IMG/VR virus record: IMGVR_UViG_3300033564_000224
Source: a virus
DNA length: 39,764 nucleotides
Strand: one strand, 5' to 3'
Made by a program: the position numbers and the translations under genes
Shown here: positions 10,998 to 30,140 of the stretch, piece after piece
How the letters are laid out: every line of letters starts with the position of its first letter
Numbering within the stretch: the first letter of the stretch is position 1
The notes under the pieces: generated by a model
Database searches by the model: none
What the model was told of the DNA's origin: nothing
What the model saw: only the letters and a program-made list of their open reading frames with translations

Positions 10998-12584
10998 TCA
11001 AATACTTGCAATCGCAAACAAACTTTCAGAACTCACCACAATTGCCGGACTGCTCACCGTCTTACCGCTTCCACTCGCGTTATCAGCGATCATCTGATTG
11101 CCGCCGCTGACCGTATCCACTTCATCGTCATGCCGTCCCTTCGGGAAAGCCGAAGCCGTCCGTAGGAAGGAAAGGTTCCACGTACCGCGCACCAATCGCA
11201 CACGTCCCTGCTTTGAGCGCAAACGCCAGGGTTGTGCCCACTGCGTCTTATCGCCATCGTGACTTCCGCGCGTCATACCCATAATCGGAATTCTCGCCAA
11301 TCGTTGGTCCTTCAAAAAGTCCCTCACAACCAACGTCTGGAAAGCATTATCTTCAATGCCCCAGATCGTACCGATCTCACGCTCCGAAAGCATCAACTCC
11401 ACGCACAACGGCAAAAACATATCCAGCTTCTGCTCCACCAGCATGTCACGGATATATTCGTAACCGTCTGCATCCATTGCCACCGCCGCGGTTGCGTTTG
11501 AATCTGCCTGTTGGCTATTACCCAAAGCCAGATCAACATAGCGATACCACTGCAAACCCGCTGGAGCTTTTTCAACGATTTCAAAATCATCCTCGTCAAA
11601 GAAATTGCCCGCTGATAATCTCGGCATTTGCTGAAACTGTGCGCCGAATTCAAAATCATTCATATTCACAGCCAGGGCGTGCAACTGTTCCGAATCATGT
11701 TTCTTTTCCCAAAGCGGTTCCCCCGGAGCGCGCCCCAGTTGATCGCCGTGCATTGGCACATATACACCGCGCAATAAATTTTCTGTAAATTCAGCTTGCG
11801 TCTTTGGGTATTGGTTTTCCTCCAACGCCACCGCAGGCATAAAAACAACATCCCATTGATCCGCCTCACCATCACTCGCCATTGCCTTCAACAGCTCGCC
11901 AGACAGATCCTCAACATCCCAGCGCGTCATAATCACAATGATTGCCGCATGGTCTTCGAGCCGTGTATAAGCCGTGGACTGATACCACTCATAATTATCT
12001 TTGCGGAGCGTGTCACTGCTCGCCTCTTTCCTACCCTTTACAGGGTCATCAATCAGGAACAGATTCGCCCCGAAGCCTGTGATACCGCCGCCCACACCCG
12101 CCGCCAGCATCCCACCGTTTCGGTCTGCAATTTCCCACGCCGCGCTCGCCTTGCTATCCGGGTCCAACAAAACCGGCTCATTCGACGAAGCCAACGCGCC
12201 GAAGACTTGCGAATACTCCTCAGACATAATTAGATCGCGCACCGCCTTGGAATGCTTCGATGCCAGGTCTGCGTTATACGAAGTCATAATGATGCGCAGG
12301 TCAGGATTTTTGCCGAGCAACCATGCTGGGAATTTGCGCGATGCCGTTTGAGATTTCCAATAGCGCGGAGGCATGAAAACCATCAAACGCGAAATCCCTT
12401 CCTTGCCGCCGCTCAAAATATATTTGGCAACCTGCTCGAGCTTGTACGCCAAAACCTGCACGTGTTTTGCATCTGTTGGATGCTTCTTATCCACGTGCCT
12501 GCAAAACGAAAGAAAATCCCGTTCAGCCATAATCCGGCTGCGGATTTCTTCACGAATTGCGGTTTTATTGGAGTCACTCGGCAT
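10998..12584 (-). CDS. terL: terminase large subunit
   Basis: Motifs MPPRYWKSQ (P-loop region), LFLIDDP (Walker B-like), and a C-terminal nuclease-like part. The ATG at 12584 lies inside the TerS 3' end; the tracked start at 12605 is TTG. Confidence 0.85.
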   Translation of the reverse strand: MPSDSNKTAIREEIRSRIMAERDFLSFCRHVDKKHPTDAKHVQVLAYKLEQVAKYILSGGKEGISRLMVFMPPRYWKSQTASRKFPAWLLGKNPDLRIIMTSYNADLASKHSKAVRDLIMSEEYSQVFGALASSNEPVLLDPDSKASAAWEIADRNGGMLAAGVGGGITGFGANLFLIDDPVKGRKEASSDTLRKDNYEWYQSTAYTRLEDHAAIIVIMTRWDVEDLSGELLKAMASDGEADQWDVVFMPAVALEENQYPKTQAEFTENLLRGVYVPMHGDQLGRAPGEPLWEKKHDSEQLHALAVNMNDFEFGAQFQQMPRLSAGNFFDEDDFEIVEKAPAGLQWYRYVDLALGNSQQADSNATAAVAMDADGYEYIRDMLVEQKLDMFLPLCVELMLSEREIGTIWGIEDNAFQTLVVRDFLKDQRLARIPIMGMTRGSHDGDKTQWAQPWRLRSKQGRVRLVRGTWNLSFLRTASAFPKGRHDDEVDTVSGGNQMIADNASGSGKTVSSPAIVVSSESLFAIASI

Positions 12585-13260
12585 CGTCGCTCGTTTCCTC
12601 GTCAAGCACTTTGTCTTCTAATTCCTTTACCAGCTCCAGCGCATCATCACCCAGCAAAACCAATAATTCAGCCGTTGTATGTTTCTTGAGCTTATCCAGC
12701 ATCTTACGACCCACGCCCAATCCGTCATCAGATGTGATCTTTTGTTTCGGCGTGTAATCTCCAGACATCTCAAAAAACAACTTCCGATCAGACGCCGCCC
12801 GATAACTGGGATCAGCCGCAACCGTTCCCAACGCATAAAACGCGCCTGGACGAAACTCCAACATGGATTCGGCTTGTAGCTCAGAGATCATCATGTCGAT
12901 CTCTGGAAACTTCTTGCGCCATGTGGCAATTGCGCGGTCACTGGTCAGCCCCAAAACTTCGGTTGCTAGTTTTTCCTGCGTCTCTGGATACCTATATTTT
13001 TTGGGCATGGTAGCCCACGCCACAAACGCCGCAATCCGCGGACGAACATTGGCATTCAACAAATTCTGGTATCCATCAGCCCACGATGGGATTTCTTCGC
13101 CCTCTACGATCTTGCCCGAAGAGATCAGCAAATTTCGGAAGATGATCTCACGCGCGCGCACATCCGCAACAGAAAACAAGGGAGCTTCTGCCTCTTCCGC
13201 ACCCTGTATGCCTACTGCAAAATTTTCGAGTTCCAACTGCGACACACGTTTGATAGACAT
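12574..13260 (-). CDS. terS: terminase small subunit (HTH-containing)
   Basis: 228 aa directly upstream of and overlapping terL. HTH-like ETQEKLATEVLGLTSDRAIATWRK and an acidic C-terminus. Confidence 0.6.
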   Translation of the reverse strand: MSIKRVSQLELENFAVGIQGAEEAEAPLFSVADVRAREIIFRNLLISSGKIVEGEEIPSWADGYQNLLNANVRPRIAAFVAWATMPKKYRYPETQEKLATEVLGLTSDRAIATWRKKFPEIDMMISELQAESMLEFRPGAFYALGTVAADPSYRAASDRKLFFEMSGDYTPKQKITSDDGLGVGRKMLDKLKKHTTAELLVLLGDDALELVKELEDKVLDEETSDDAE

Positions 13261-13577
13261 TATGTATTCCTATTTCTATTGGGAGTTGGTTTCACCAAAG
13301 TATGAAATTTACTACTCAGGTTATTGACTTCCAAAGAGATATTCTTTACTTCATCCGCCATGCGCGCCATTCCTGCCGCATGGATTTCGTTTTGTTCACG
13401 CATGAATAACCGGTTATTTTCTTCCTGTGTTCCAAGGAACTCGATCATTCTGGTTTGTGCGTTGTCTTGCCGCTCTTCCGATTGGCGTAAATGTTTGAGA
13501 AACATCCACACGACAAACGCAACAACGCCCGCTAATGGGATCTGCAATAAAAGGTTGATTACCGGTTCAGTCAGCAT
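13260..13577 (-). CDS. single-pass membrane protein with coiled-coil tail
   Basis: N-terminal hydrophobic segment INLLLQIPLAGVVAFVVWMFL. TAATG overlap with terS. Confidence 0.5.
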   Translation of the reverse strand: MLTEPVINLLLQIPLAGVVAFVVWMFLKHLRQSEERQDNAQTRMIEFLGTQEENNRLFMREQNEIHAAGMARMADEVKNISLEVNNLSSKFHTLVKPTPNRNRNT

Positions 13578-13585
13578 ATTGATTC

Positions 13586-13645
13586 CAAAAGAAAGGCGGG
13601 CAGCGCGTCCATAGCCAGATTGTCAATGTGACAGCCTGCCCCGCC
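13586..13645 (-). terminator. candidate terminator with a large loop
   Basis: Minus strand: GGCGGGGCAG (13645-13636)...CTGCCCGCC (13603-13595), followed by TTTCTTTTGG. Confidence 0.4.
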
Positions 13646-13658
13646 GAATTCCTACCGG

Positions 13659-14093
13659 TTATTTACCTGCCCAACCGTCAAAAACGCGCTTGAGCAAAAT
13701 GTTATAGATCAATGTGGCAAACGCGACCGCCGGTGAAAGTGCGATCAATAATGCAGTGACCCATCCGAAGACGGCAGACATAAATGTTATAGGGTCGCTA
13801 AATGTGCCAACAGACGGCAGGACAACTCCGCCCCAAACTACTGAGAGGATCAGCGCCACAACATAAAGCAAAACAGCCATCCATTCGCGCTTGATCATAA
13901 TTTGCGGGAAACGCGCAGCAAGCAATTTCAAACCATAGAGCATCGCCGAGGCAAATATACCGATCACATACATCTGCACCGCCGTCACCTCAGACGGATT
14001 CAGGCTTGCCCCATCCGCAGGCGCAATGGCACAGGCTGAGAGCATCACCGCAAAAAGCAATCCGACCAAAAGAATATTGATAGTTTTTTTCAT
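13659..14093 (-). CDS. multi-pass membrane protein with lipoprotein-like signal (possible holin or exclusion protein)
   Basis: MKKTINILLVGLLFAVMLSAC contains a lipobox-like LSAC, plus three or more further hydrophobic helices. SD AAAGGAGA. Confidence 0.55.
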   Translation of the reverse strand: MKKTINILLVGLLFAVMLSACAIAPADGASLNPSEVTAVQMYVIGIFASAMLYGLKLLAARFPQIMIKREWMAVLLYVVALILSVVWGGVVLPSVGTFSDPITFMSAVFGWVTALLIALSPAVAFATLIYNILLKRVFDGWAGK

Positions 14094-14115
14094 AGCAAAA
14101 ATCTCCTTTTCAAAG

Positions 14116-14163
14116 TTGAAAAACGATAGCGCCCGATGCTGACCTAAGTCAACATCGGGCGCT
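14116..14163 (-). terminator. rho-independent terminator downstream of the cassette array
   Basis: Minus strand: AGCGCCCGATGTTGAC TTAG GTCAGCATCGGGCGCT, then ATCGTTTTTC. The single non-Watson-Crick pair is G.U on the minus strand only. Confidence 0.75.
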
Positions 14164-14295
14164 TATCTCCGAAATCACCTGCCACACTGGGCGGGTATTG
14201 CAAAAAGAACAACTGTACTAATTTCAATTATTTTAAAACATTTTCATAATTCTGCAAGAGTCAATTTATTCAAAATATGTTTTTTATTCTGAGCC

Positions 14296-14420
14296 GTCTA
14301 ACGGTTTGCGTTAGTGGTGATGGGTGAGAACCAAACCACCACGAACGGGATAATTTCAAAGTGTGGATGATGCCTGCAAACGGGGAGCATACCCATCATC
14401 CACTGCGCGCTTTGTTCGGC
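14296..14420 (-). repeat. attC-like site 10 (125 bp)
   Basis: Minus strand: R'' GCCGAAC...GTGG(A)TGATGGGT / ACCCATCACCAC stem...TAACGCAAACC, R' GTTAGAC. Confidence 0.75.
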
Positions 14421-14425
14421 GGCGT

Positions 14426-14872
14426 TTATCTTCCGATGCGTATAATTAGCATTAGGAAAATAGAAAATATAACCACGCACCCCACAATTGCGCCTGCGCC
14501 AATGTTTACCCACACCCATGCCGCCACCAATATTCCAACTGCCAGAAATAGCATTCCAGCGATTGAAGCAATAGTACCGCTCTTGTATTCTTCCGCCTCG
14601 CGGCGATGGTCGTAGGCTCTCAAATCTTTCGAGGCTTGTGTGCGCTCTCGGACGCTCTTATGGATTTCGGCATTGTCGCCTCTGCGATTCCGTATCCAAT
14701 TACGCCACGACTCATTATTTTCGCGTGCCGAAGCAATACCCTTGAGGGATCGCTTGATGTAGTTTCTTTGGTCAAACTGCTCCATACTATCCCAATTTGC
14801 GGGCTGTTCAATCGTGTGCATACAGCCGTTATCTTCATCCCACATTGTGACAGTTTCGGTTTTTTTACTCAT
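14426..14872 (-). CDS. cassette 10 ORF: C-terminally membrane-anchored protein (148 aa)
   Basis: ORF track. C-terminal hydrophobic stretch IASIAGMLFLAVGILVAAWVWVNIGAGAIVGCVVIFSIFLMLII. Its stop lies 5 nt before R''. Confidence 0.65.
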   Translation of the reverse strand: MSKKTETVTMWDEDNGCMHTIEQPANWDSMEQFDQRNYIKRSLKGIASARENNESWRNWIRNRRGDNAEIHKSVRERTQASKDLRAYDHRREAEEYKSGTIASIAGMLFLAVGILVAAWVWVNIGAGAIVGCVVIFSIFLMLIIRIGR

Positions 14873-14904
14873 AGTTTTCTCGCTTCTCGGCTGGCAAGGT
14901 AGCC

Positions 14905-15013
14905 GCCGAACGGACTGCGTTAGCCGCGTGTGCGACCAACCATAACCTTATTTTTTGGATGATACTTCTTTACGCCACAGCCTTGCACACGTCGGGTGAA
15001 CGCTTTGTTAGGT
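14905..15013 (-). repeat. attC-like site 9 (109 bp)
   Basis: R'' ACCTAAC...CCG(A)CGTGTGC / GCACACGCGG stem...CTAACGCAGTCC, R' GTTCGGC. Confidence 0.7.
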
Positions 15014-15183
15014 GCGCTCATAATTGTGGATGGTTCTATTTTTCCATCAGACGGGAAATCCACGTAGAGCGTACCATCATCATACGAGAAAACTTTAGCA
15101 CACGGAACGTGCCACAAATAGCCACGCGATTGTATTGTTTCCAGATTCTTATTTTCTTTACCACACGATAGACATTTTTCCAT
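14920..15183 (-). CDS. cassette 9 ORF: small Cys-containing (zinc-ribbon-like) protein whose 3' end reads through attC
   Basis: MEKCLSCGKEN...WHVPCAK. The stop is the conserved TAA of the attC 3' arm. Confidence 0.55.
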   Translation of the reverse strand: MEKCLSCGKENKNLETIQSRGYLWHVPCAKVFSYDDGTLYVDFPSDGKIEPSTIMSAPNKAFTRRVQGCGVKKYHPKNKVMVGRTRG

Positions 15184-15188
15184 GAAGC

Positions 15189-15301
15189 ACCTAATGATTT
15201 TCTTTACCCGCTCACGGCAGGCTCGGCATTTTCAACGAACACGACATCAGGCAGGCAATGAGCCGCCGTCTGGAGGGAGTCGGGTGCAAGCTGTGTTAAC
15301 C
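15189..15301 (-). repeat. attC-like site 8 (113 bp, degenerate R')
   Basis: R'' GGTTAAC ACA GCTT G CACCCG A C...GCGGGTAAAGAAAATC, R' ATTAGGT. Confidence 0.6.
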
Positions 15302-15491
15302 CGCTTTCTTGCTGGCTCACGCACTTTGCCAATAAAGCACCAAGACGGTAAACCTTGAAACTTCGATTTTCAACGCCGATCTTGTGACCAAGTACCAATT
15401 GTTTTGCGCTCATCGTTAGCATAATTTGTATGTTTGCTATATTATCTTTGTCGTCATAGAAAATCACTACGCTATAACTTTCTTTTGGCAT
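15204..15491 (-). CDS. cassette 8 ORF: hypothetical protein (95 aa, start re-assigned)
   Basis: ATG at 15491 after GGAAGGAGAG. The C-terminal ~35 aa are encoded by attC 8. Confidence 0.6.
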   Translation of the reverse strand: MPKESYSVVIFYDDKDNIANIQIMLTMSAKQLVLGHKIGVENRSFKVYRLGALLAKCVSQQESGLTQLAPDSLQTAAHCLPDVVFVENAEPAVSG

Positions 15492-15514
15492 ATTCTCTCC
15501 TTCCAAAAAGTGAG

Positions 15515-15606
15515 GGCTAACGGTTTGCTTTACTGGATTGGGGCGTTATAACCTCGGCAATAAAACGCCACGCCCGCCCCAAGTCCAGTGCAAGCGATTG
15601 TTAGAC
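15515..15606 (-). repeat. attC-like site 7 (92 bp)
   Basis: R'' GTCTAAC...R' GTTAGCC. It is 90/92 identical to site 6. Confidence 0.8.
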
Positions 15607-15951
15607 CCCGCCCCGTTCTGACGGGGCTTTGATTACACCGCCGTACTTTTCTATCAATTTCTGGCAGAACCCTTCGCTGATTTTTCCGCGCCAAATCTCT
15701 TGGGCGGGAACATCAATAACATATTTCTTTTTTCTCTCGACAGTTATCGCTCCGTTGCCTTCTATGCGTTCTCCGCGCAAATAGTAACTTCCATCATCTA
15801 CATTCGCTTCGTTTTCATAATGACCGACGGCTTGCGAGTGCTCGACAACTACGCCATCAGTGTAGATGGTTACTATATGGATTTCTTTCCCGTCGGAGTC
15901 AGGGAAAAAACGAAATGTTTCTCCAAACGTGAACTTCTCAACTTTTGCCAT
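15601..15951 (-). CDS. cassette 7 ORF: hypothetical protein (116 aa), paralog of the cassette 1 ORF
   Basis: 102/116 aa identical to 18613..18963. SD AAAGGAGAG. The stop TAA lies inside R'' (GTCTAAC). Confidence 0.75.
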   Translation of the reverse strand: MAKVEKFTFGETFRFFPDSDGKEIHIVTIYTDGVVVEHSQAVGHYENEANVDDGSYYLRGERIEGNGAITVERKKKYVIDVPAQEIWRGKISEGFCQKLIEKYGGVIKAPSERGGV

Positions 15952-15976
15952 TGCAACTCTCCTTTTACAAGATAAG

Positions 15977-16068
15977 GTCTAACGGTTTGCTTTACTGGCT
16001 TGGGGCGTTATAACCTCGGCAATAAAACGCCACGCCCGCCCCAAGTCCAGTGCAAGCGATTGTTAGAC
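15977..16068 (-). repeat. attC-like site 6 (92 bp)
   Basis: GTCTAAC AATC GCTT G CACTGG A CTTGGGGCG...CGCCCCAAG CCAGTA AAGC AAACC GTTAGAC. Confidence 0.8.
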
Positions 16069-16422
16069 CCCGCCCTGTTGAGCGGGAACGACTGCCAGTA
16101 GTGCGGCTCGACATATTGCAAGCGGTGCGGTTTCTGCGTTTGCTTCAAAACTCTCGAATGCATTGAAGATAACGCATACCCATCCGCGAATAGATGTACG
16201 TAAATCTACGTCATGCAATTCGTCAACAGACCCCATTTTTTCAACCACGTCCCACACACTTGTTATATTTTTTGAGTACGGATAAACACTTTCCCGACTT
16301 CCCAAAACATAAATAAACGGTGCGCCACGCTCCCAAACTATCTCACGCTTAAAAACATGCTCATCAATAAGCGCGTCCATTTTTCGCCCTGCGGGCATAT
16401 TCAAAATTTCATCTTTGGTCAT
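16063..16422 (-). CDS. cassette 6 ORF: hypothetical phage-type small protein (119 aa, start re-assigned)
   Basis: ATG at 16422 after GAAGGAGAAGG. MPAGRKMDALIDEHVF...YSKNITSVWDVVEKM...APLAICRAALLAV loosely recalls small phage accessory proteins. The tracked N-terminal extension is attC 5 sequence. Confidence 0.65.
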   Translation of the reverse strand: MTKDEILNMPAGRKMDALIDEHVFKREIVWERGAPFIYVLGSRESVYPYSKNITSVWDVVEKMGSVDELHDVDLRTSIRGWVCVIFNAFESFEANAETAPLAICRAALLAVVPAQQGGV

Positions 16423-16443
16423 AACCTTCTCCTTCACGAAGGG

Positions 16444-16554
16444 GTCTAACGGTTTGCGTAACCCGCAGGAGCGAGAACGCAAGACCACAAAATTATTTAC
16501 CAGAACGCTTTTTCGGCGTGACGTTGCTCCTGTCGGGTTCACGCTGTGTTAGGC
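16444..16554 (-). repeat. attC-like site 5 (111 bp)
   Basis: R'' GCCTAAC ACA GCGT G AACCCG A CAGGAGC...GCTCCTG CGGGTT ACGC AAACC, R' GTTAGAC. Confidence 0.8.
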
Positions 16555-16556
16555 AA

Positions 16557-17435
16557 CTAGCCATTAGACTCGCCTTCAACTGGCGAAGTAATTACATAAT
16601 CTTTCATCACAATGCCTTTTTCAATACTTCCGCGCACTTGGCTATTCCACCAATACATATCTTTATATTTTCCGAAAAGACCTTCTCCTTTTGAAAAATC
16701 CTTGAAATGTCCACGACAGATATGCAGTGATTGTTTCAATCCTAAACTTTCGGATTTTCCTTCCTCACGCAAAACTTTTTTCATCGGTTCAATTTCGAGA
16801 ACCTTATACTTAATTTTTGATGAATTCCTATTGCGTTTTTCATTTTTTTTATCATCTGATTTACGCGGAATAATTTCTACATTTTTACAATGTAGAAATG
16901 AAATTGCTAAAAGTGCTGGGTAAACATTCACAAATAATTCATCATATATTTTATGAACTCTTTCCGTTGCATTTATTTCTTCTGGAATAATTGCCATGTA
17001 TTGAACTTCTTCGCCATATTTAGCAATCCTTCCGTCTTTTTCGATTGCAAGCCCATACATAAAATAATCATTATTTACGCGCTCTGAATTTCCTAAAAAC
17101 AATGACATTAATAATCCCCACTTCGCCCCGCTCTCTGTAATGTCAACTGAACTAAATAAAACTCCAACACGAGTTCCGCTTGAATCGCGTTTATGATTTT
17201 CTCCATCGAAATGAAGCACTCCAGACGGCATTGAATATTCCATCCACATATTTTCAAATGGAGGCGCAAGGTTTGGAAAATCTTTTTCAAAATCCCATTC
17301 ATCTTGTTCACTTTTCCAAAAGTATTCAGCGACATTATCAATTAATATGATTTCCGAATTATCAATTTTAGAAATCATATCTTTAGTCAGAATACTGTTT
17401 TTGTTCTTAAGAATATTTCTATAAAGCGTATTCAT
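16557..17435 (-). CDS. cassette 5 ORF: hypothetical protein (292 aa), visibly AT-rich
   Basis: ORF track with SD AAAGGA. K/N/E/I-rich composition unlike the rest of the genome. C-terminal motif HICRGHFKDF...GLFGKY...WWNSQVRG was not recognised. Confidence 0.7.
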   Translation of the reverse strand: MNTLYRNILKNKNSILTKDMISKIDNSEIILIDNVAEYFWKSEQDEWDFEKDFPNLAPPFENMWMEYSMPSGVLHFDGENHKRDSSGTRVGVLFSSVDITESGAKWGLLMSLFLGNSERVNNDYFMYGLAIEKDGRIAKYGEEVQYMAIIPEEINATERVHKIYDELFVNVYPALLAISFLHCKNVEIIPRKSDDKKNEKRNRNSSKIKYKVLEIEPMKKVLREEGKSESLGLKQSLHICRGHFKDFSKGEGLFGKYKDMYWWNSQVRGSIEKGIVMKDYVITSPVEGESNG

Positions 17436-17453
17436 AATTTATCCTTTTGGGTT

Positions 17454-17541
17454 GCCTAACTTTTGCGTTACCCGCGCCGCGCCTGTAACCTGTCCAAAAA
17501 TGGCGGACGTGGCGCGGCGTCGGGTGCACGCCTTGTTAGAC
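17454..17541 (-). repeat. attC-like site 4 (88 bp)
   Basis: R'' GTCTAAC AAG GCGT G CACCCG A CGCCGCGCC...GGCGCGGCG CGGGTA ACGC AAAA, R' GTTAGGC. Confidence 0.8.
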
Positions 17542-17712
17542 CGCGCTCTCAATCACAAAGGTGTTGAAGTACGCAACAACCTTTTCCATCTCGGTAATTG
17601 CTACGGCATAACGCCGTGCTTCTTCGGTGCGCTCGGCTGGCTTTGCTTCACGCAACTTCATCAGCGCGAGTTTCAGAGATAGCATAACTTCTTCGTTTAC
17701 TGTTGTTTCCAT
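17536..17712 (-). CDS. cassette 4 ORF: 58-aa helical protein (below the ORF-track cutoff)
   Basis: Own translation: METTVNEEVMLSLKLALMKLREAKPAERTEEARRYAVAITEMEKVVAYFNTFVIESAV. SD AAGGA 7 nt upstream. The stop TAA lies inside R''. Confidence 0.55.
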   Translation of the reverse strand: METTVNEEVMLSLKLALMKLREAKPAERTEEARRYAVAITEMEKVVAYFNTFVIESAV

Positions 17713-17750
17713 TTTATTTTCCTTTACCGACTTCCTTTTGCAAGGGAGCG

Positions 17751-17841
17751 GCCTAACGGCTTGCGTTACTGGCTTGCGCCACTAACTTGATTGCTTTCAG
17801 GCGCGACGGCTGGCGCAAGTCCAGTGCACGCGGTGTTGGAA
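17751..17841 (-). repeat. attC-like site 3 (91 bp)
   Basis: R'' TTCCAAC ACC GCGT G CACTGG A CTTGCGCCA...TGGCGCAAG CCAGTA ACGC AAGCC, R' GTTAGGC. Confidence 0.8.
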
Positions 17842-18191
17842 GGCGTAGATGGATTTATGTATTCAAATTCGATACGTGTGACTTCAGCGGATGACGGCAC
17901 ACCCATTTCACGCATGAACATATCAATAAACCATTCCACGCTTTGACCTTCAAAACCTTCACGAATAACATCATCAGGAGTGATGTCGTAAAGCCTTTCA
18001 CGGCGGACATTTACCACGCGGATTTTTGCAAGGCGTTCAATCTTTTCACCTTGCTTCAAACCCATGCACTTTACACAGGCATTGAGTTCATCGCCTTTCT
18101 TCAACATCAGCCAACCCAAACGGCGAGTGACTGTCTTTTGTTGCTTTCGTACCTGCTCAGTTGTGAGCATGAATGAGATATTTCTAGCCAT
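17766..18191 (-). CDS. cassette 3 ORF: ASCH-domain-like protein (141 aa) with an attC-encoded tail
   Basis: ISFMLTTEQVRKQQKTVTRRLGW..LKKGDEL matches the ASCH N-terminal pattern. The last ~28 aa are translated from attC 3. Confidence 0.6.
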   Translation of the reverse strand: MARNISFMLTTEQVRKQQKTVTRRLGWLMLKKGDELNACVKCMGLKQGEKIERLAKIRVVNVRRERLYDITPDDVIREGFEGQSVEWFIDMFMREMGVPSSAEVTRIEFEYINPSTPSNTACTGLAPAVAPESNQVSGASQ

Positions 18192-18211
18192 AAGACACCT
18201 TTGCTTTAGCC

Positions 18212-18339
18212 TTCCAACGGTTTGCTTTACCAGCGCTGGGTGGGCGCGGATTCGGCTTGGGATGTGGATAATGCTGAGGCTTGTAAACTGCTTGTAGAAA
18301 CCGCCGAATCCCCAGCGTCGGGTGCAAGCTGTGTTGGGC
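18212..18339 (-). repeat. attC-like site 2 (128 bp)
   Basis: R'' GCCCAAC ACA GCTT G CACCCG A CGCTGGG...CCCAGCG CTGGTA AAGC AAACC, R' GTTGGAA. Confidence 0.75.
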
Positions 18340-18493
18340 GTTGTTTATCTTTACGAGCGGCTTCTATTGCCTTCAAGCGCGTCGCTGTTTCTGCAATGCA
18401 ATGACCTACGCCTGCACTAGACCACTCGTAAACATGATACATGCCATCAGCCCATTGAAAAATACGATAACCATTTGGAGCGCGTTTTGTCAT
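18227..18493 (-). CDS. cassette 2 ORF: hypothetical protein (88 aa, start re-assigned) with an attC-encoded tail
   Basis: ATG at 18493 after AAGGA. The C-terminal ~37 aa (RPTQLAPDAGDSAVS...) are encoded by attC 2. Confidence 0.6.
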   Translation of the reverse strand: MTKRAPNGYRIFQWADGMYHVYEWSSAGVGHCIAETATRLKAIEAARKDKQRPTQLAPDAGDSAVSTSSLQASALSTSQAESAPTQRW

Positions 18494-18526
18494 TTTCAAT
18501 TCCTTTATTGTGTTGAGCAAGGAAAC

Positions 18527-18618
18527 GCCCAACGGTTTGCGTTAGTTGCGTGGGGCGGCGTTACCTTCGCTTTCAGTACGCCAGCCCGCCCCACGTCAAC
18601 TGCACGCGATTGTTAGAC
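18527..18618 (-). repeat. attC-like site 1 (92 bp)
   Basis: R'' GTCTAAC AATC GCGT G CAGTTG A CGTGGGGCGG...CCGCCCCACG CAACTA ACGC AAACC, R' GTTGGGC. Confidence 0.8.
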
Positions 18619-18963
18619 CCCGCCCCGTTCTGACGGGGCTTTGATTACGCGGCCATACTTTGCTATAAGTTTTTGGCAGAAACTTTCACTGATTTGTCCG
18701 CGCCAAATTTCTTTGGGCGGGACATCCACAATGTATTTCTTTTTCCTTTCGACAGTTGTTCTTCCGTTACCTTCTATGCGTTCTCCGCGCAAATAGTAAC
18801 TTCCATCATCTACATTCACTTCGTTTTCATAATGACCGACGGCTTGCGTGTGTTCGACAACTACGCCATCAGTGTAGATGGTTACCACATGAATTTCTTT
18901 CCCGTTTGAGTCAGGGAAAAAACGGAACGTTTCCCCAAATGTGAACTTTTCAACTTTTGCCAT
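18613..18963 (-). CDS. cassette 1 ORF: hypothetical protein (116 aa), paralog of the cassette 7 ORF
   Basis: ORF track. Its leader TTAGACCTTATCTTGTAAAAGGAGAGTTGCA is identical to cassette 7. Confidence 0.75.
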   Translation of the reverse strand: MAKVEKFTFGETFRFFPDSNGKEIHVVTIYTDGVVVEHTQAVGHYENEVNVDDGSYYLRGERIEGNGRTTVERKKKYIVDVPPKEIWRGQISESFCQKLIAKYGRVIKAPSERGGV

Positions 18964-18988
18964 TGCAACTCTCCTTTTACAAGATAAG

Positions 18989-18995
18989 GTCTAAC
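18989..18995 (-). other. first core recombination site (GTTAGAC) at the head of the array, in an attI-like position
   Basis: Minus strand: TGA G TTAGAC. The core site directly follows the stop of the intI remnant. Identity with the cassette 7 copy starts exactly at this G. Confidence 0.65.
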
Positions 18996-19181
18996 TCATG
19001 ATTCTACTAGCGCACGCCGTATAACAGGTGACGCCAATTGACGATCCAACGGTGAACGAACTGCCGCGCCCCCAAGTAAATGTACATAGATCATTGTTGT
19101 CTCAAGTTTCTGATGTCCGAGCAACTCCTGAATAGTCCGAATATCCGTTCCCGATTGATATAAATGCGTCGCGTACTTCAT
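18996..19181 (-). pseudogene. intI: 5'-truncated integron integrase (intI-like tyrosine recombinase) remnant, C-terminal ~60 codons only
   Basis: [45 protein letters not shown] matches box II of tyrosine recombinases (LLGH...Y) plus the IntI-typical VRSPLD ending. An in-frame TGA lies 2 codons upstream of the first Met. Confidence 0.75.
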
Positions 19182-19215
19182 CCATCAACTTAGCCATAGC
19201 ATCACCCTATACAAC

Positions 19216-19360
19216 GCAAATTCCTGCCAAAGAACCGAAATCTCCGGGAGCTACCAACTCAACGGCGACACGCATTTCTCTGGCAGGAATTTGCCTGTGA
19301 ATATGAAATTGTAATAGAACGATCTTCACAAAATAAAACGCATCGCCCGTGGAAAAGAGT
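19216..19360. repeat. two interleaved perfect inverted repeats (14 bp and 13 bp)
   Basis: gcaaattcctgcca (19216-19229) pairs with tggcaggaatttgc (19281-19294). gagctaccaactc (19248-19260) pairs with gagttggtagctc (19347-19359). The order is A-B-A'-B'. Confidence 0.8.
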
Positions 19361-19375
19361 TGGTAGCTCGGTTTC

Positions 19376-19404
19376 ATTTTACAAGCTACGATTCTCAATG
19401 TCAA
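19376..19404 (-). promoter_or_regulatory. near-consensus sigma70 promoter pointing into the intI remnant and cassette array
   Basis: Minus strand: TTGACA (19404-19399), a 17-nt spacer, then TAAAAT (19381-19376). Confidence 0.6.
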
Positions 19405-19418
19405 TAGGAATACAAACG

Positions 19419-19952
19419 CTATCTGCGCCACGTAGCCGCGCGAAGCTCGGGAGCAACATACTTCAGCCCGCACAGTTGAAAAAAATCTTCCTCCTCCAAA
19501 ATATGCACTGGGCTATTATCTCGGCTGCTCCAAACCGCGCCGTCTTTTACATACACCGTATCAGGCAGCGCCCCGCCAATCGCCCGATGCGAAACCATCC
19601 ACTGGCTGAAATCCGCAGGACCCGTGCGGATCATATATTGCACCCCCCAATCCGCTGGGGGAGTCACAATAAACAAATCCAAACTGATCCCGCTATACAA
19701 AGCAATTTTTTTATATTTATGCCCGTTCTTTTCAACCTTGCCCAAGTTGGAAAAATCAAACACATCCAAAGAATGGTCTTCCAGCACCGCACCAAACATA
19801 TCCGTTTGCATAAAAGGCACTGCCACGATCTCAATATCTTTCACCTCCGGCTTCCCTCGCCGAATAGAACCCGCGATCTCAATCCGCTTGCAAACGTCCC
19901 CCAATGTAGAAACCAATTGATTAGCCAACTGCAAAGCCTCAGTGTGTTCCAC
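19419..19952 (-). CDS. minimal Pol-beta/PolX-like nucleotidyltransferase (177 aa)
   Basis: IAGSIRRGKPEVKDIEIVAV fits the GS-x-RRGK...D-x-D/E palm motif of family X polymerases. A later ISLDLF supplies a third acidic residue. Confidence 0.6.
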   Translation of the reverse strand: MEHTEALQLANQLVSTLGDVCKRIEIAGSIRRGKPEVKDIEIVAVPFMQTDMFGAVLEDHSLDVFDFSNLGKVEKNGHKYKKIALYSGISLDLFIVTPPADWGVQYMIRTGPADFSQWMVSHRAIGGALPDTVYVKDGAVWSSRDNSPVHILEEEDFFQLCGLKYVAPELRAATWRR

Positions 19953-20262
19953 CGCGTACCTCCATATTCTTTTCCAGCAACACCTGCGAAAATTTGAAAA
20001 CCGTCTGCGCGTCCAGCTCCATAAACAACGAAACCAATCCCGGCACGCTGATCTCCCAAACTTTCACATCGTCGCAAATAGAACAGCGGATCGGCATCCG
20101 CCCATCCAGCGGACCTAACAGATCCACCTCATTAGGTTGTTCAACATCCATATCCAACGCCTTCCGCAGTACACTCAATTGCGGAAGATCATCACCATTC
20201 CAACGGATAAACCCGAGGATATGGTTATTTCTACAACGCCACTGCTTTATCTGCCTAGCCAT
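19939..20262 (-). CDS. hypothetical Cys/His-containing protein (107 aa, start re-assigned)
   Basis: ATG at 20262 after AAAGGAG. WRCRNNH...RCSICDD suggests a zinc-binding site. Confidence 0.5.
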   Translation of the reverse strand: MARQIKQWRCRNNHILGFIRWNGDDLPQLSVLRKALDMDVEQPNEVDLLGPLDGRMPIRCSICDDVKVWEISVPGLVSLFMELDAQTVFKFSQVLLEKNMEVRGGTH

Positions 20263-20275
20263 CACACTCCTTTGG

Positions 20276-20752
20276 TTACGCCATGCCGCCAACAGCCACA
20301 CATCGCGCAGGCATCCACTCCGCAGCCTGCAAAATACAACCATGCACATCCATGCCCATCGCCATGCCCTTTGACAACTCCGCAACATACGCATCCCGCG
20401 GCGCAAAATGAGTCCGTATAAAAAACTGTTCCCAAGCCATCTCAATGCACGTACTCACGCGCTCGGCATATAAATAATGCACGAACATAAACCTGCGGAA
20501 TTTCTTCGGGCTGAGATATTGCACCTCCCACGGACCATATACCGCCCACGTCACATCCAACGAGAACAATCCCAAATCCGCATCTGCCGCCGCCTCAACC
20601 TGCATCTTCGCCACAGACAGTTCCGGCACCTGAATGCCATATTGCCATAATGCCGTCACAGCATCATCCGCCGCAAACGCAGAATCACCAATAATTTTGA
20701 CTTGTCTCATTCCATCGTGTGAAAGTTTATTCGTTGTTACCTGTCGCATCAC
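20276..20752 (-). CDS. hypothetical protein (158 aa)
   Basis: ORF track. No family recognised. Confidence 0.5.
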   Translation of the reverse strand: MMRQVTTNKLSHDGMRQVKIIGDSAFAADDAVTALWQYGIQVPELSVAKMQVEAAADADLGLFSLDVTWAVYGPWEVQYLSPKKFRRFMFVHYLYAERVSTCIEMAWEQFFIRTHFAPRDAYVAELSKGMAMGMDVHGCILQAAEWMPARCVAVGGMA

Positions 20753-21258: not shown

Positions 21259-22239
21259 CTATTTCAAAGAGAAACCGATCTTATACAAACCGTTTGCAAT
21301 TGCCATAACAGGATCATCCGCCATAATGGACTTTCCATTGAACTTGGCTCGTAAATATTTTTCAAGCAATATTGATCCGCCGCCAACTAAAAACACACGA
21401 TGGAAACGGTGATAACTCTGACCCCAAAGCGAGTTCACAAAACCAACCACCTCACTCGCCCAACTCTCCAAATGCGGAGTTACATCCAATTCATCGGGCA
21501 GCGTTCCAGCGCGCAGCATTTCGTCAAACTCGCCGAACGTGTAATAACCGTTTGGGTCTACCCGCCGCCATAGTTGACGCACTCCAATCGACTTGCCGCC
21601 GTTGAATCGCTTTGTATCTTCATCGCGTTTTGTTACCAACGCCTCAACCGTATTGGAGCCAATTGAAATTGTTGCGCATTCATTTTTCAGCGCCTTTATT
21701 CGCTCTTCGCTGATTGCCTTGCCAAAAATATCCAACGCATAATCAACTGGCGCGCCTAAAGCCTGCGGATAAAGTTCCACTCGCTCTACCTCAAGCGTAT
21801 AGCGTTCACCGTCTGCCATCCACTCATGCGAGCCAGCCAGCCAGCCATTCACGCCCTTGCGAAACTTTGCCACGTTTGCGCCTTCGCCCATCAACATCTG
21901 GAAAGGCAAACCAACGATCAGAGTCAACGCATCATCAAACGCGCCATATTTACGCATATAAGATGTCATCGCTCCGTAAAACACGCCGCGCATTTCAGGC
22001 GTTCCAGCCAGGCGGTCAAAGTCCAAATTCTCAATAGGCGTCCCGTAGGAATGCGCGCCATGCCCCACGAACAATTTCCCGAAATCACCTTCCACAACCA
22101 CAGGCTTCTTGCGTTTCTTGCCAAAATCAGCCACATCAGAACCGTACAACGCCGCCATACTTGCAAACTGCAAAGCCCCGCGCACACCTACAAATTTCAA
22201 AGAACTTTGTCCCAAATCACAACCAAATTTGATAGTCAT
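21259..22239 (-). CDS. parM: actin-like segregation ATPase (ParM/StbA family)
   Basis: 326 aa with actin-fold motifs: FGCDLGQSSLK (phosphate 1), IVGLP, ISIGSNTVE (phosphate 2), VFLVGGGS (adenosine), AIANGLY. Confidence 0.7.
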   Translation of the reverse strand: MTIKFGCDLGQSSLKFVGVRGALQFASMAALYGSDVADFGKKRKKPVVVEGDFGKLFVGHGAHSYGTPIENLDFDRLAGTPEMRGVFYGAMTSYMRKYGAFDDALTLIVGLPFQMLMGEGANVAKFRKGVNGWLAGSHEWMADGERYTLEVERVELYPQALGAPVDYALDIFGKAISEERIKALKNECATISIGSNTVEALVTKRDEDTKRFNGGKSIGVRQLWRRVDPNGYYTFGEFDEMLRAGTLPDELDVTPHLESWASEVVGFVNSLWGQSYHRFHRVFLVGGGSILLEKYLRAKFNGKSIMADDPVMAIANGLYKIGFSLK

Positions 22240-23797: not shown

Positions 23798-24156
23798 CTT
23801 GCGCCATCCTTTCCAAGTCTAAATTCGTACAATCTACCTTGACCATCTTTCAACACCGTCCCCGGCGTGAAAGTCAAATCTTTCACCATCAATTCCCAAT
23901 AATCTTTCGGGAACGAAGTCCCTGGCTTGAACCCGCCGCACTCCAACGGATCACTCACCACAGACAAACTACCCACGCCTCGGGCAAGTGCCCGCTCGAT
24001 GGGCGCCGCATAGTTTTTTGCCTTCGCGCGGCTTTTATGCAACCGCGCCAACTGCGCCTCACGATCACATTTGCCATTTCTACAAACGCCGTTGCTCACC
24101 TTTTTATTGCCAACGTAGCTATTACCGCAAATAGAACAAATATTCACGTAACTCAT
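23794..24156 (-). CDS. hypothetical zinc-ribbon protein (120 aa, start re-assigned)
   Basis: ATG at 24156 after AAGGAG. CSICGNS...CRNGKC. Confidence 0.5.
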   Translation of the reverse strand: MSYVNICSICGNSYVGNKKVSNGVCRNGKCDREAQLARLHKSRAKAKNYAAPIERALARGVGSLSVVSDPLECGGFKPGTSFPKDYWELMVKDLTFTPGTVLKDGQGRLYEFRLGKDGAR

Positions 24157-24401
24157 AAGGTCTGCTCCTTTCCACAAACTCGGCACCTGCCAAGTTTGAA
24201 ATCCAAACCGTCATGTTGCCCCATCCACACATCCCACAAACCCGTAATAAAGCACTTCACACAACGCCGCTCTTCCACACCCACCGCCACCGTCACAAAC
24301 TCATTCGCCGGAGCATGTACAGCAACCTCACGCCGCACGATTGCCATAAACTGCTGAACTAAGACCGAAGTACCTTTTACTGAAATCAATTTGTCTGACA
24401 T
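24153..24401 (-). CDS. hypothetical protein (82 aa)
   Basis: ORF track. First gene after the AT-rich iteron region. C-terminal CxxC. Confidence 0.45.
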   Translation of the reverse strand: MSDKLISVKGTSVLVQQFMAIVRREVAVHAPANEFVTVAVGVEERRCVKCFITGLWDVWMGQHDGLDFKLGRCRVCGKEQTL

Positions 24402-24418
24402 ATCTGCACCTTTCTCTA

Positions 24419-24735
24419 ATTTATGAAGGTTTATGAAGAACGCCTAAAAAGCAAGTTCATAAAAACAACCATTACAAAACTAGACTTACAAAAATTTTGC
24501 ATAAATACCCCTTCTTCATAAACATTCATAATGTTCATAAAATAGGTGTATGTATGTGTAGGTTTAGTAAAAAACTTACCGCCCATAATTCGCATAGTTG
24601 AATTTATGAACATTATGAAGGAAAATGAACATGAAAACGCACTTTGAGCACAGTAAAAGAAAAAAAATACATGTTTTTTTTCTGGAAGTGCCCAGTACCC
24701 CCTAAAATGCTTCATGATGTTCATGATGTTCATAA
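24419..24735. repeat. AT-rich iteron cluster (TTATGAA/TTCATAA), candidate replication origin
   Basis: Perfect heptamers start at 24421, 24431, 24456, 24515, 24525, 24534, 24604 and 24613. TTCATGA/TTCATAA tandems lie at 24707-24734. The cluster lies immediately 3' of the primase-helicase gene. Confidence 0.55.
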
Positions 24736-27700
24736 ACGGGTTTCCCATTCGCCGCTATCCTCATTGAAATACATTGCGTCATCACTCGGTTTTATAAAAT
24801 CCTCTTGCACCGGCACAGGCATTTTTACCGGCTCCACTACAGCCAGAGCTTCATCCAGTTCAGATTTCGGGTTATATTCCGCTTCACGGTCAAGCCCCAG
24901 CCTCAATTTCGCCACCTCTAAACGTTCACGATGCAGAATCACAGCCCACCCATCCCCTGTTCTCTCAACTGGCAGGCGGAATGAATCGCGACAAACATCT
25001 CCAATTGTTTTACTTTTCACCCCTTGTTTTTTCTTATCGTCTGCGCCATCCGCAAAATTTTCAACGTCAAAGATTTCATTGGCTATTGCAGCTACGTCTT
25101 TATACAGGATATAGCGCACAGTCCCATGTCTTCCCACCTTCCCCACCTTCACCTTATCCCCATAACCCTTCACTTTTTCGGCATAGGTCTTGCTTGCCTG
25201 TGGCTCAAATCCGAGTTTCACGTCTCCGGCAATATCAGCCGCCAAAGTAGCCCGCAAAATTACCGCCTCAAACGAACCTGCACGCTTGATCATTTCATCT
25301 TCATAGTTTGCGCGTCCGATTTTCATCAGGTCATCCAACAGTTGTTGATCGTTCTGCAAAACTGCCAGTACCTTCATCGGGCGCAGCACCTGGTTCACTC
25401 GCGGCGAAACCAGTGGGTCTGCAAGATGGAATGCCTGCCGCTGTTCTGGTGATAGTTCGATCTTCGGCATCCACATTTGAAGCCGCCAGCGCAGGCACAT
25501 ATTCCGAATACTGTCCGCGTCCTCTTCCAGTTCTGGCGGGTAATAGCCTGGTTCCATTCCTGCTCGGTCAAGTGTCAAGGTGTCCACTTGCGAAAGATCA
25601 AACGTAATACAGCGGTTTTCAATGCCAGGGTCAGCAAACGATTTGTACATGGTGATAAAAGTTACGCCATAAACATTGGAGGTCGATGGAACAAATACTT
25701 TCCCGGTGGGTGTCATCATCTCCATCATGTTCAACGAATTTGCATAGCGTTTCATTGAACGCCCCTTCAAAAACGCCTCCATTGTGCCGTCGTCTTTTTT
25801 CATCAGGTTGTCCGCTTCATCAATCATGACTGAGGCGTTATACAATTTTGCCAGCCCCTTATACGAGGCGGATGATGATGTTGAAAGCGTCACCGCAAAC
25901 CGGTAGCTGGTTAGTCCAACTAAATACATCAAATCCGACTTACCCGATCCACTGCCACCGCGCGCCCGCAGAAAATTCAGCGCCTCGAACGAATCAAAAA
26001 CCCAACTAAACAGCGAATACGCCCCGCAGAATTTATAGCGGCTCTTTTCTTCCAAATAAAAATACTTCTCATAATATTCAGCGTTCCGGTTGATCAACTC
26101 GCGCGAGTTCTTCAGCGGACCTAACGCGCTGGGGAGTTTCACTACGCACACCTCAATCAATTCGTCATATTCCGGTGGCTCAAGTTTCTTGCCACCCACT
26201 ACCAAAAACGGCGCAGTATCAATTTCGCGCTCCCCGTTTTTCATGTCCGTAATATGAGCATAGGCAAAACGTATTTTCTTATTTACCTTGTCATAGATCA
26301 GATCAATCAAATAACCGCTGTTCTCGGCTTTATCTTCTGGATACCACCCGCCATAAGTGGTGACAACTTCGAGTTCATCATCGTCGTCATCTTCATTTTT
26401 CGCCGCCTTCATCTCTCCACCCAGCCAACGGCTATAAGCCAGCGTTCTTTCAGCCTTTCCCAAACTTGGATAAAAAGCCTCAGCAAGCGCAGCCGTATAG
26501 TTGACGCGGCTTCCATTGGGCATTGCCAAAACCAGCGGACGCACAACCTGATTCAGCGCCTGTTCCTTGAACTTCCCTTCCTGCGCACCCGCATACCGCG
26601 CCGCCAACAGGACAATCGGCTCGGCTTTTGCGATAATATCCTTCACAAAAGGTTTGCGCTTATCATCCTCAATTTTGTTATCCATGAAATATTGAGCAAT
26701 GTCATTTGTATCTTTCAGCCGCTTCGTATGTCCATCTGGACGCACCCACTCAATCGCAGGCGTGCGTTCCACCCACAGCATCGAACCGAAAGCAGTAGAT
26801 AGAGGAAAATCATTCTTGCTGCCGCACACAACGGTTTCGCCGGGAACATCCGCATCAACTGTATAAGCAATTTCTTCGTACTCTTCTTTCAATCGGTCAA
26901 TAATTCCGCTCTCGATCAGGTATTGCCATGACGAGCCGCACATAGCCATTGCCGCATCGCCAAACTGCCCCCACGTCACCGCATCGCCCTGCCCCTCAAC
27001 GATGTGGATCAGATCGCCCTTCGCCTGTCCCACAACATGATGCGCCCGATGCCGCCAGTTGAAATATGGTCTGCGAGGTCCCGCCAGTGTGGAATTCGGA
27101 TTGTGAGATTTGCGCTCCGCATCGAAACCCGGCAGTAGTCTCGCCGAAATATATTCAATCTTCCCGTCAAGTTTATGCGCGTACACTAACCCCGGTTTGC
27201 TCATCATCCCTTGCACGTAGTTATCAGCTAATCCCTTCGGGTCAATCTGGTGCTCAAGCGCCCACTTCTCAACATCGCCCTGGAACCCCAATATCATCAC
27301 AGCGTCAGGAGACAGCAGGTCAATCCCGTGCATCGTGAATTCGCCGCGCATTTCCTTGTACGCCTCAGCAGTAGCACGCCCAGAAAAACCTATGCCCGCC
27401 AGCTTGATAGTTTCCAACGTCCAACCGCGGTCAAGCGCATACGCCAACGCATCCTTATCAGGCGCACGGGTAACTGTTCCATCTTTCTCAGCCGTGCCCA
27501 ATAGCCAACGCTTGAACACACCCTGCGCCACACGCAACGCAGATTCGTGCGCACGCGCCGAAATTCTCTGCCCCAAATTTTCCTTATCACCCTGCAAAGC
27601 AATTCCCGCCTTGCCAGCCAATTCTTTTATTGCCTCTTTCAGATCATAGCCAGGGTTTTTCTTGATCACCCAATCGAATATATCTCCGCCATCATTGCAT

Positions 27701-27882: not shown

Positions 27883-28230
27883 AAAACTCTCCAGCGTTTT
27901 TCCAGAATTTTTATAAATATTCGAGCTTGCCCGCCCCAAGCCTCTCCGCACAAACAAAACAATTCGCCGAGCACCCCCACCCCCCTCCCTTACCACCTTA
28001 TGCGACAGATAATCATCGCCTTACAGACCAATCTAACCGCTATGTATGCCCGCTATCAGGCTGTTTATGTCGCATAATGCGTGTTCTACGACACATCCAA
28101 TCGTTTCTGGGAGTGCGCCCGCCCGTGCCAGCCCACGCATAATATGGAAGTGAACTTTGGGACTTTTTCTTCTACTGCTTATATTGTTGAGCGCGCGCGG
28201 GCGAACACACCTGAGAAACATTGCGACCTG

Positions 28231-29612: not shown

Positions 29613-29697
29613 CGTGGATTTCCTTATTGATTGATTTGTCTGCGAGATGGGCGAGGAGGGCGAGGGCGAGTATGAAGAGTGCTTCGGGGATGGTCAT
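29602..29697 (-). CDS. possible 31-aa hydrophobic peptide
   Basis: MTIPEALFILALALLAHLADKSINKEIHDDR. ATGA overlap with the upstream stop, and it overlaps the next start. Confidence 0.25.
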   Translation of the reverse strand: MTIPEALFILALALLAHLADKSINKEIHDDR

Positions 29698-29909: not shown

Positions 29910-30140
29910 GGGTAGCTCCTATTTGATTTGATGTTCCTTCGGGGGAGTGGCCTTGCGTCCGCTCCCCGTCATAAGGAGGAGAACACTGCGGGTCATCACG
30001 CCGCAAGTTGAGCGATTAGGATTGAACCTGTTATAGATTGCGCCCTGTGCGCGGATCGCTCAATTTGATAAACGGGCGGGCATGGTCAGTTGCCATGTCA
30101 TCATTCGCTCGCGGATTTCTCTCCGCCGCCCGTGTTATTT

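Follow-up and report, generated by a model that had tools for sequence, protein, structure and literature searches.

A ten-cassette integron array in a temperate tailed-phage genome and its counterparts in related phages

Between positions 14296 and 19181 of a viral contig of 39,764 nt, the IMG/VR record IMGVR_UViG_3300033564_000224 (hereafter the window, meaning that whole stretch of DNA), ten small genes are arranged as an array of gene cassettes, each followed by a repeat of the attC type and all headed by the 3′ end of an integron integrase gene (ΔintI). The region very probably holds the cassettes of an integron that temperate tailed phages of one lineage, with Anaerolineae as probable hosts, carry as a resident element, and the window is a decayed member of that phage-borne integron lineage, consisting of ΔintI, attI and ten cassettes. 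Integrons are usually viewed as devices of bacterial chromosomes and plasmids, and the travel of cassettes between cells and lineages is poorly understood. The locus and its relatives are cleaner than the phage examples published so far: the array stands between modules, intact IntI genes occur in relatives from many metagenomes, and turnover is precise to the cassette. If the system is active, these phages would be integron users, shuffling accessory genes such as DNA methyltransferases, as well as couriers of cassettes between hosts.

The carrier is a complete genome of a temperate tailed phage. A 43-nt terminal direct repeat is present at the ends of the record, which for this reason is taken as a circular element of 39,721 bp. 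TerL was recognized by a PHROG match (E = 7e-93), and the head and tail genes matched in the same database comprise a head protease-capsid fusion, portal-like, head-morphogenesis and major tail proteins, together with a tape measure protein whose gene wraps over the contig ends. TerL, portal-like, capsid/protease and tail genes are thus found on a single contig with a sign of completeness, as in Caudoviricetes. The genome also encodes a primase, a ParM-like protein, an Xer-like tyrosine integrase and a large serine recombinase. An earlier description of this DNA made from its letters without database searches (the sequence-only reading) had already proposed a complete tailed-phage genome around the array, and this is borne out.

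The array, its attC sites and the integrase remnant

All plausible genes of 14296-19181 lie on the minus strand and form ten co-oriented cassettes with one open reading frame (ORF) each (Table 1). The ORFs encode 58-292 aa and are preceded by leaders of 11-44 nt; their stop codons fall within attC or at most 5 nt from it. One site of 88-128 nt follows each ORF, the ten being contained within 4.3 kb, and the cassettes measure 284-1010 bp. The ten co-oriented cassettes of the sequence-only reading, with their attC-like repeats, were reproduced with these same dimensions; its further claim that each ORF has its own Shine-Dalgarno sequence holds for most leaders, in which an AAGGAG- or AAGGA-like motif is found.

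The same reading had every repeat beginning with RYYYAAC and ending with GTTRRRY. The cores stand, since GTT ends all ten sites and AAC starts nine of them (AAT in site c), but the full 7-mer consensus is present at both ends in 4/10 sites only, the deviating boxes including GCCGAAC, GGCTAAC, TTCCAAC, GTTCGGC, GTTAACC and GTTGGAA. A strict scan for the pattern returned only those four sites, plus chance pairs elsewhere; having proved inadequate, it was replaced by a structural alignment and a covariance model. The aligned sites share the 5′ end (R)YYYAAC-GGTTT-GC(G/T)TTA.. and the 3′ end ..GTC...TGCA(A/C)GC-nnT-GTTRRRY, and the ten-site model found no further hit elsewhere in the window. The RNAalifold consensus contains 25 pairs, 14 of them with compensatory double substitutions. 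Paired cells of the stem amount to 94.7%, versus 76.4% in column shuffles (0/500 reach the observed value), and sliding the partner by 1-3 columns leaves 31-42% of the cells paired. Individually, fold z-scores are -2.5 or lower in 7/10 sites, the others being -1.6 (b), -0.4 (c) and -1.4 (i).

The extrahelical bases of attC sites sit on the bottom strand, a rule reportedly due to Bouvier in 2009 and Nivina in 2016. In the alignment, the unpaired columns 107 and 114 are located on the 3′ arm of the plus strand, opposite the minus-strand ORFs. Applied to the Vibrio record MK672802, the window model gave 15 weak hits (E = 0.02-1.5), seven of them on the bottom strand inside the array; within that array the Vibrio cholerae repeat (VCR) sites were hit only on their bottom strand, each of them weakly. 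An independent attC model built from the VCR sites of MK672802 was dropped, motif-based extraction of the sites being unreliable.

The boxes carry the most telling signature. The 3′ box of a site complements the 5′ box of the neighboring site at 7/7 positions in seven cassettes and at 6/7 in the other three (e.g., GTTGGAA/TTCCAAC flanking cassette 3, GTTCGGC/GCCGAAC flanking cassette 10), whereas the two boxes of one and the same site match at 7/7 only once among the ten. This cassette-wise complementarity is as expected from the separate insertion of each cassette, with the crossover between G and TT. Judged by sequence and predicted fold, the ten repeats are integron attC sites.

The IntI-like fragment that the sequence-only reading had placed at the head of the array was confirmed as a 61-aa ORF. 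Its best NCBIfam match is TIGR02249 (profile positions 268-314 of 315, E = 2.7e-16), ahead of the XerC and XerD models, and it aligns with the C-terminus of full IntI proteins, the GVxSPLD motif included. It scores 59.8 bits versus a cut-off of 265, the C-terminal codons being what is left of the intact integrase that a complete integron would have. Homology with the full-length intI genes of related phages spans 18993-19173 and always stops at 19172/19173, the truncation point; nucleotide identity is 79-88% to intI in the loci L096, L099, L127, L168 and L174.

When the junction between intI and the first cassette was aligned in ten elements, it proved conserved through the intI 3′ end to GAGTT and unrelated beyond. 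A search with the junction pattern matched three viral and 11 metagenome contigs; with the window added, 13 different sequences follow GAGTT, corresponding to 13 different cassettes in first place at 14 attI junctions. The attI crossover is therefore placed at this point, and an overlap of attI with the 3′ end of the gene follows; the position of attI next to intI is judged by conservation and divergence in these 14 elements, and the remainder of attI presumably lies inside the retained part of the gene. This overlap would also explain the survival of the intI 3′ end in decayed copies. Independent decay of intI with attI kept is seen in metagenome contigs, with truncation in L164 and L165, and in-frame internal deletions in L167 and L168 that fuse the N-terminus to the attI-bearing C-terminal part.

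With ten attC sites within 4.3 kb and no complete IntI anywhere on the circular genome, the window has the composition of a CALIN, the IntegronFinder term for clustered attC sites without an integron integrase (PMC9024848). Like a CALIN, it has several co-oriented attC sites and no functional intI; it differs in what it retains, the 3′ end of intI together with the attI crossover, and for this reason it is better described as a recently decayed complete integron than as an orphan cluster. The term itself is said to come from Cury et al. in 2016.

Related phages, cassette turnover and the chromosomal pool

Relatives of the window phage were found in IMG/VR through TerL and through an IntI-alignment search, which returned 364 contigs with IntI-like genes; the best 80 of these 364 were examined (L080-L159). 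The TerL relatives are syntenic with the window, in the order w22256, ParM, w20276/w19939, variable region, TerS and TerL. Sites of the same attC type, on the same relative strand, occur upstream of the packaging genes in L005, L018, L022, L026, L031 and L036, and in L005 and L022, which contain enough upstream sequence, they lie inside the variable region. Among the other TerL relatives, L010 and L013 are examples in which attC is absent from the locus.

Full-length IntI genes (TIGR02249, 368-442 bits) are present in L080, L081, L084, L085, L086, L096, L099 and L127. In L080, L084, L086 and L127 the gene directly follows a homologue of the PolX-like gene or of w19939, which is the position of ΔintI in the window; in L081, L096 and L099 it follows ParM or replication genes. 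The IntI genes of these relatives are followed by one to four or more attC sites and, in L081, L085, L096, L099 and L127, the array is in turn followed by a membrane-protein and/or TerS-like gene and then TerL, so that the packaging-side order of the window (membrane protein, TerS-like protein, TerL downstream of the array) recurs. Furthermore, L072 is a prophage of the same group within a 329-kb Anaerolineales contig, and its order is that of the window: TerL, TerS, membrane protein, array and IntI.

Cassettes are turned over one by one among these related phages. Between L072 and L080, identity is 93-94% over intI and over the sequence downstream of the array, while their arrays (four and three cassettes, respectively) share no similarity of 85% or more, and the two align again precisely from the GTT of the last attC onward. 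Together with the 13 first cassettes mentioned above, this pair supplies the related phages with different cassettes at one locus that the sequence-only reading had proposed to look for as a check. Cassette 5 of the window recurs in L175 at 97% nucleotide identity among different neighbors, including an N6/N4 methyltransferase cassette; the match to L175 stops at the R′ box of attC f (16446), and a match of 88.8% to L176 starts exactly at the cassette 5 boundary, 17459. Homologues of cassette 6 are cassettes in the phage loci L099 and L127 as well as in a 155-kb Chloroflexi contig (L049).

Among genome sequences, searching with a pattern built on the sites gave 31 matching loci, most of them in metagenome-assembled genomes (MAGs) of Anaerolineae or other Chloroflexota, in which the covariance model found 124 attC-type hits. 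Genuine IntI genes, reading into the array, are present in the genome loci L072 (419 bits) and L062 (405 bits), above the cut-off of 265. Sites of this type are also plentiful in Anaerolineae genome contigs in which no phage genes were found within the 8 kb examined. The hosts are probably Anaerolineae (phylum Chloroflexota), a class to which the data point as a holder of abundant arrays.

Other integrase genes were met in the same searches. Two contigs contain a full-length IntI with a single attC site beside an Xer-like integrase in the lysogeny module, not at the window's locus: L088 (9230-11460, on the contig of L002) and L094 (9953-12676, on the contig of L013), with TerL identities of 80% and 72%. 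In L009, two attC-like hits (333-391 and 533-726) lie upstream of a homologue of window ORF 24153-24401 and would make a third attC location in this phage group. L083, L093 and L101 are long contigs with IntI and arrays that have no genes in common with the window.

Mechanism, alternatives and known systems

On the minus strand, the elements of the locus are, in order, a promoter-like site, a structured leader, ΔintI with attI, the G|TT crossover, the ten cassettes and a terminator-like hairpin. As in integrons generally, each attC is predicted to fold as a single-stranded hairpin, here on the plus (bottom) strand. Recombination between two attC sites, catalyzed by the tyrosine recombinase IntI, would release a cassette, and attI would be the site of its insertion. 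About 260 intI codons have been lost from the window phage; gain, loss or reshuffling of cassettes would consequently need IntI in trans, which might be supplied by a chromosomal integron of the host or by a co-resident phage of the same family. The window array can thus probably be used only where IntI comes in trans. The cassettes are presumably promoterless, and their expression would depend on read-through transcription. We infer that recombination with borrowed IntI may still occur at present, that the promoter-like site could be a true promoter and that the cassettes may benefit the phage.

Beyond the residence of this integron in a phage lineage, we lean slightly toward a broader proposal, in which integrons would be a native and active module of temperate phages of Anaerolineae, with their own IntI, a fixed junction between replication and packaging genes, attI in the intI 3′ end, and cassettes (DNA methyltransferases included) exchanged among phages and host arrays; the window array would have lost its integrase and still be serviceable in trans. 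Several observations weigh against a resident, usable phage integron. Most TerL relatives with enough upstream sequence have no attC at the locus, and this patchy distribution could reflect repeated acquisition instead of inheritance. The host assignment is based on MAG labels and one prophage. The window genome contains no full intI, and its Xer-like integrase (28231-29184), considered as a hidden IntI, was discarded with 55 bits versus the cut-off of 265 and without the IntI-specific insertion; with this Xer-like protein as the sole other tyrosine recombinase, the array may be a frozen relic. The covariance model was trained on the window's own ten sites, site c combines a mutated AAT core with a fold no better than shuffles, and sites b and i fold weakly. 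Finally, none of the window cassettes has a demonstrated function.

Passive capture, in which a piece of a host chromosomal integron would have entered the phage once by illegitimate recombination, as cargo without a role in the lineage, has reportedly been proposed for Vibrio anguillarum phages. Here it is improbable. It would agree with the truncated intI, with the 237 nt between the PolX-like gene and ΔintI (19182-19418), which have no homologue in any relative locus examined, with the abundance of the same attC type in Anaerolineae genome contigs showing no phage genes within 8 kb, and with the GC content of the array (0.42-0.47 versus about 0.50 in the phage backbone). However, no fewer than eight related phage contigs, drawn from different metagenomes, and one prophage have full-length intI with cassettes at the same module junction, and the nearest relatives of ΔintI with known context are phage-borne or share the backbone (79-82% for L096, L099 and L127, 87.7% for L168), the other close matches being short contigs of unknown context. 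Moreover, the array stops downstream at a defined point, the R′ box of its last attC, just as the arrays of L072 and L080 do, and not at an arbitrary breakpoint. An assembly chimera of phage and chromosomal integron reads, or a prophage call including host flank, is less probable still. Repeats of the attC type are known to break or mis-join assemblies, and the Vibrio "phage integron" record MK672802 adjoins the host genes thrS, infC, rpmI and rplT. In our case, phage genes lie on both sides of the array within the circular contig, the same architecture is met again in numerous contigs that were assembled separately, and also within a prophage, and the left junction is reproduced in L001, a separately assembled IMG/VR contig with 99.97% identity over 12501-15556 that spans the array/backbone junction at 14296. 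L001 breaks off inside attC d, which differs from its near-twin attC e, 460 nt away, at 2/92 nt though their cassettes differ; the order of cassettes 6 and 7 is the part most exposed to assembly error, and cassette order between sites d and e could still be mis-assembled.

Least probable of all is that the repeats are generic intergenic hairpins, such as repetitive extragenic palindromic (REP)-like elements or terminators, that merely resemble attC. They are indeed GC-rich imperfect palindromes after ORFs, and 3/10 fold no better than shuffled sequence, but their AAC/GTT cores are conserved, their flanking bases are complementary cassette by cassette, their bulges are strand-specific, homology breakpoints fall exactly at G|TT, and genuine IntI genes are found in physical linkage with such sites, in genomes and phages alike. 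No T run follows the sites, and the single true terminator-like site stands at the array end.

The sequence-only reading had held that a cassette array within a phage genome is not an established category. This was already outdated, since integrons and CALINs have been reported in phages: among 10,705 phage genomes, three complete integrons, one In0 and 17 CALINs were found, phage attC sites (from lytic phages) were recombined by IntI1, and DNA methyltransferase cassettes were recurrent (Qi et al., 2023; PMC9892861). The examples described or figured there are CALINs of about two to three sites, and the "complete" cases are the Vibrio record, class 1 integrons on P1 phage-plasmids and a cryptic Shewanella prophage (PMC9892861). 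The window shares with these elements the attC arrays with or without intI in phage genomes and, through its relatives, the DNA methyltransferase cassettes; it differs in its ten cassettes, the conserved junction between modules, the intact IntI of its relatives, the probable Anaerolineae hosts and a turnover precise to the cassette. Apart from that study and an unrelated sul4 paper, neither a phage-resident integron lineage nor integrons of Anaerolineae were found described in open-access papers and preprints. In MK672802 (L160), thrS, infC, rpmI and rplT adjoin intIA (23843-28053), which suggests a host flank within that record.

Likenesses to other systems are partial. The array resembles the Vibrio cholerae superintegron in its small cassettes, mostly of unknown function, its lineage-similar attC sites and its ORFs ending in attC; unlike it, it is far smaller, is carried on a 39.7 kb phage genome and has an intI pointing into the array. 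In integrons of the inverted type, intI is transcribed in the direction of the cassettes and attI is found at the intI 3′ end. This orientation is said to be that of Treponema denticola, and of the Spirochaetes, Chlorobi and Planctomycetes group of Boucher et al. in 2007. The orientation and the place of attI are the same here, while the GTT directly abuts the intI stop codon and the carriers are phages and Anaerolineae. Regarding phage "moron" hot spots, the position between replication and packaging genes and the hypervariable small accessory genes between close relatives are alike; variability here arises through a site-specific attC/attI/IntI system, not through illegitimate or homologous exchange.

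Cassette contents and other features of the locus

NCBIfam, Pfam and PHROGs yielded almost no function for the cassettes of the window. Phage_ABA_S, in cassette 6 (119 aa), is the sole Pfam domain; cassettes 5 (phrog_20769) and 6 match PHROGs of unknown function, cassette 3 has weak PHROG hits only, and PADLOC gave no hit. The functional labels that the sequence-only reading had attached to the window cassettes find no support in these results; for its ASCH-like cassette, in particular, there is no Pfam hit at E ≤ 0.01. A PDB sequence search with cassettes 1, 3 and 5 returned nothing significant. The cassette 5 protein falls in a family that counts 575 or more members, in which the motifs H182-C183-x-N185 and H238-I-C-R-G-H243 are invariant; its confident AlphaFold model (predicted local distance difference test, pLDDT, of 80.5) matches only six uncharacterized Caudovirales proteins in BFVD, and the predicted fold has no PDB fold match.

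Recurrent families were counted over 60 cassette ORFs from phage arrays. They include four DNA methyltransferases (two C5, one N6/N4 and one MT-A70), ABA-sandwich domain proteins (3), an HD-GYP protein and a radical-SAM protein; PAS-HD-GYP protein and DNA methyltransferase cassettes are found in the arrays of TerL relatives. The recurrence of DNA methyltransferases makes an anti-restriction role plausible for some cassettes of the relatives. The shuffling of anti-defence genes that the sequence-only reading had suggested gains indirect support from these related arrays (at least four such cassettes) but none from the window's own array, in which no methyltransferase cassette was found.

Table 1. 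Features of the array and of its flanks in the window, in the direction of the minus strand (cassette sizes are crossover to crossover).
Feature	Position	Strand	Details
Upstream phage backbone	19419-20445	-	PolX-like ORF 19419-19952 (weak pol-beta thumb match); ORF 19939-20445
Promoter-like site	19376-19404	-	TTGACA-17-TAAAAT; 11/12 match to sigma-70-like consensus; faces ΔintI and cassettes
Leader region	19182-19375	-	two interleaved inverted repeats
ΔintI	18996-19181	-	last 61 codons of IntI; TIGR02249; ...LLGH..TTMIY.H...GVxSPLD... C-terminus
attI crossover box (putative)	18989-18995	-	GTTAGAC; directly abuts intI stop codon (TGA|GTT)
Cassette 1 (462 bp)	18533-18994	-	ORF 18613-18963 (116 aa); attC j 18527-18618 (92 nt)
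Cassette 2 (315 bp)	18218-18532	-	ORF 18227-18493 (88 aa), runs through attC i 18212-18339 (128 nt)
Cassette 3 (461 bp)	17757-18217	-	ORF 17766-18191 (141 aa); attC h 17751-17841 (91 nt)
Cassette 4 (297 bp)	17460-17756	-	ORF 17536-17712 (58 aa); attC g 17454-17541 (88 nt)
Cassette 5 (1010 bp)	16450-17459	-	ORF 16557-17435 (292 aa); attC f 16444-16554 (111 nt)
Cassette 6 (467 bp)	15983-16449	-	ORF 16063-16422 (119 aa); attC e 15977-16068 (92 nt)
Cassette 7 (462 bp)	15521-15982	-	ORF 15601-15951 (116 aa); attC d 15515-15606 (92 nt)
Cassette 8 (326 bp)	15195-15520	-	ORF 15204-15491 (95 aa); attC c 15189-15301 (113 nt)
Cassette 9 (284 bp)	14911-15194	-	ORF 14920-15183 (87 aa, Cys-rich N-terminus); attC b 14905-15013 (109 nt)
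Cassette 10 (609 bp)	14302-14910	-	ORF 14426-14872 (148 aa, hydrophobic C-terminus); attC a 14296-14420 (125 nt), last site of the array
Terminator-like hairpin	14128-14163	-	16-bp stem, then T run; closes the transcription unit of the array
Downstream phage backbone	10998-14093	-	membrane protein 13659-14093; TerS-like 12574-13260; TerL 10998-12605

Cassettes 7 and 1 are paralogous (90% nucleotide and 88% amino-acid identity), without any family or PDB sequence match, and their attC sites, d and j, have diverged, with compensatory changes that preserve the pairing. One and the same GC-rich hairpin, GCCCCGTTCTGACGGGGC, is found just outside both sites (15610-15627 and 18622-18639), where it falls in the final codons of the two ORFs.

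Upstream of ΔintI, the inverted repeats of the leader pair 19216-19234 with 19276-19294 and 19248-19260 with 19357-19369 (RNA fold z = -2.9), and 19182-19418 could be a regulatory leader for the array. Promoter-like sites are overall no commoner in the DNA than in shuffled sequence, and the one at 19376-19404 is a consensus match only. No family match was obtained for ORF 19939-20445, homologues of which do occur in related phage contigs. A search of GenBank phages gave no match to the array and, for the backbone, only the TerL of Virus Rctr41k at 74%; Rfam and tRNA scans of the window returned nothing.

As for the rest of the phage genome, GC skew is positive at 28001-31000, despite the minus-strand long ORFs, and negative elsewhere. 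The ParM-like protein is encoded at 21259-22239, the Xer-like tyrosine integrase at 28231-29184 and the large serine recombinase at 32629-34293; with both recombinases and the ParM-like protein, the phage may be able to integrate, as the L072 prophage suggests, and to persist as a plasmid.

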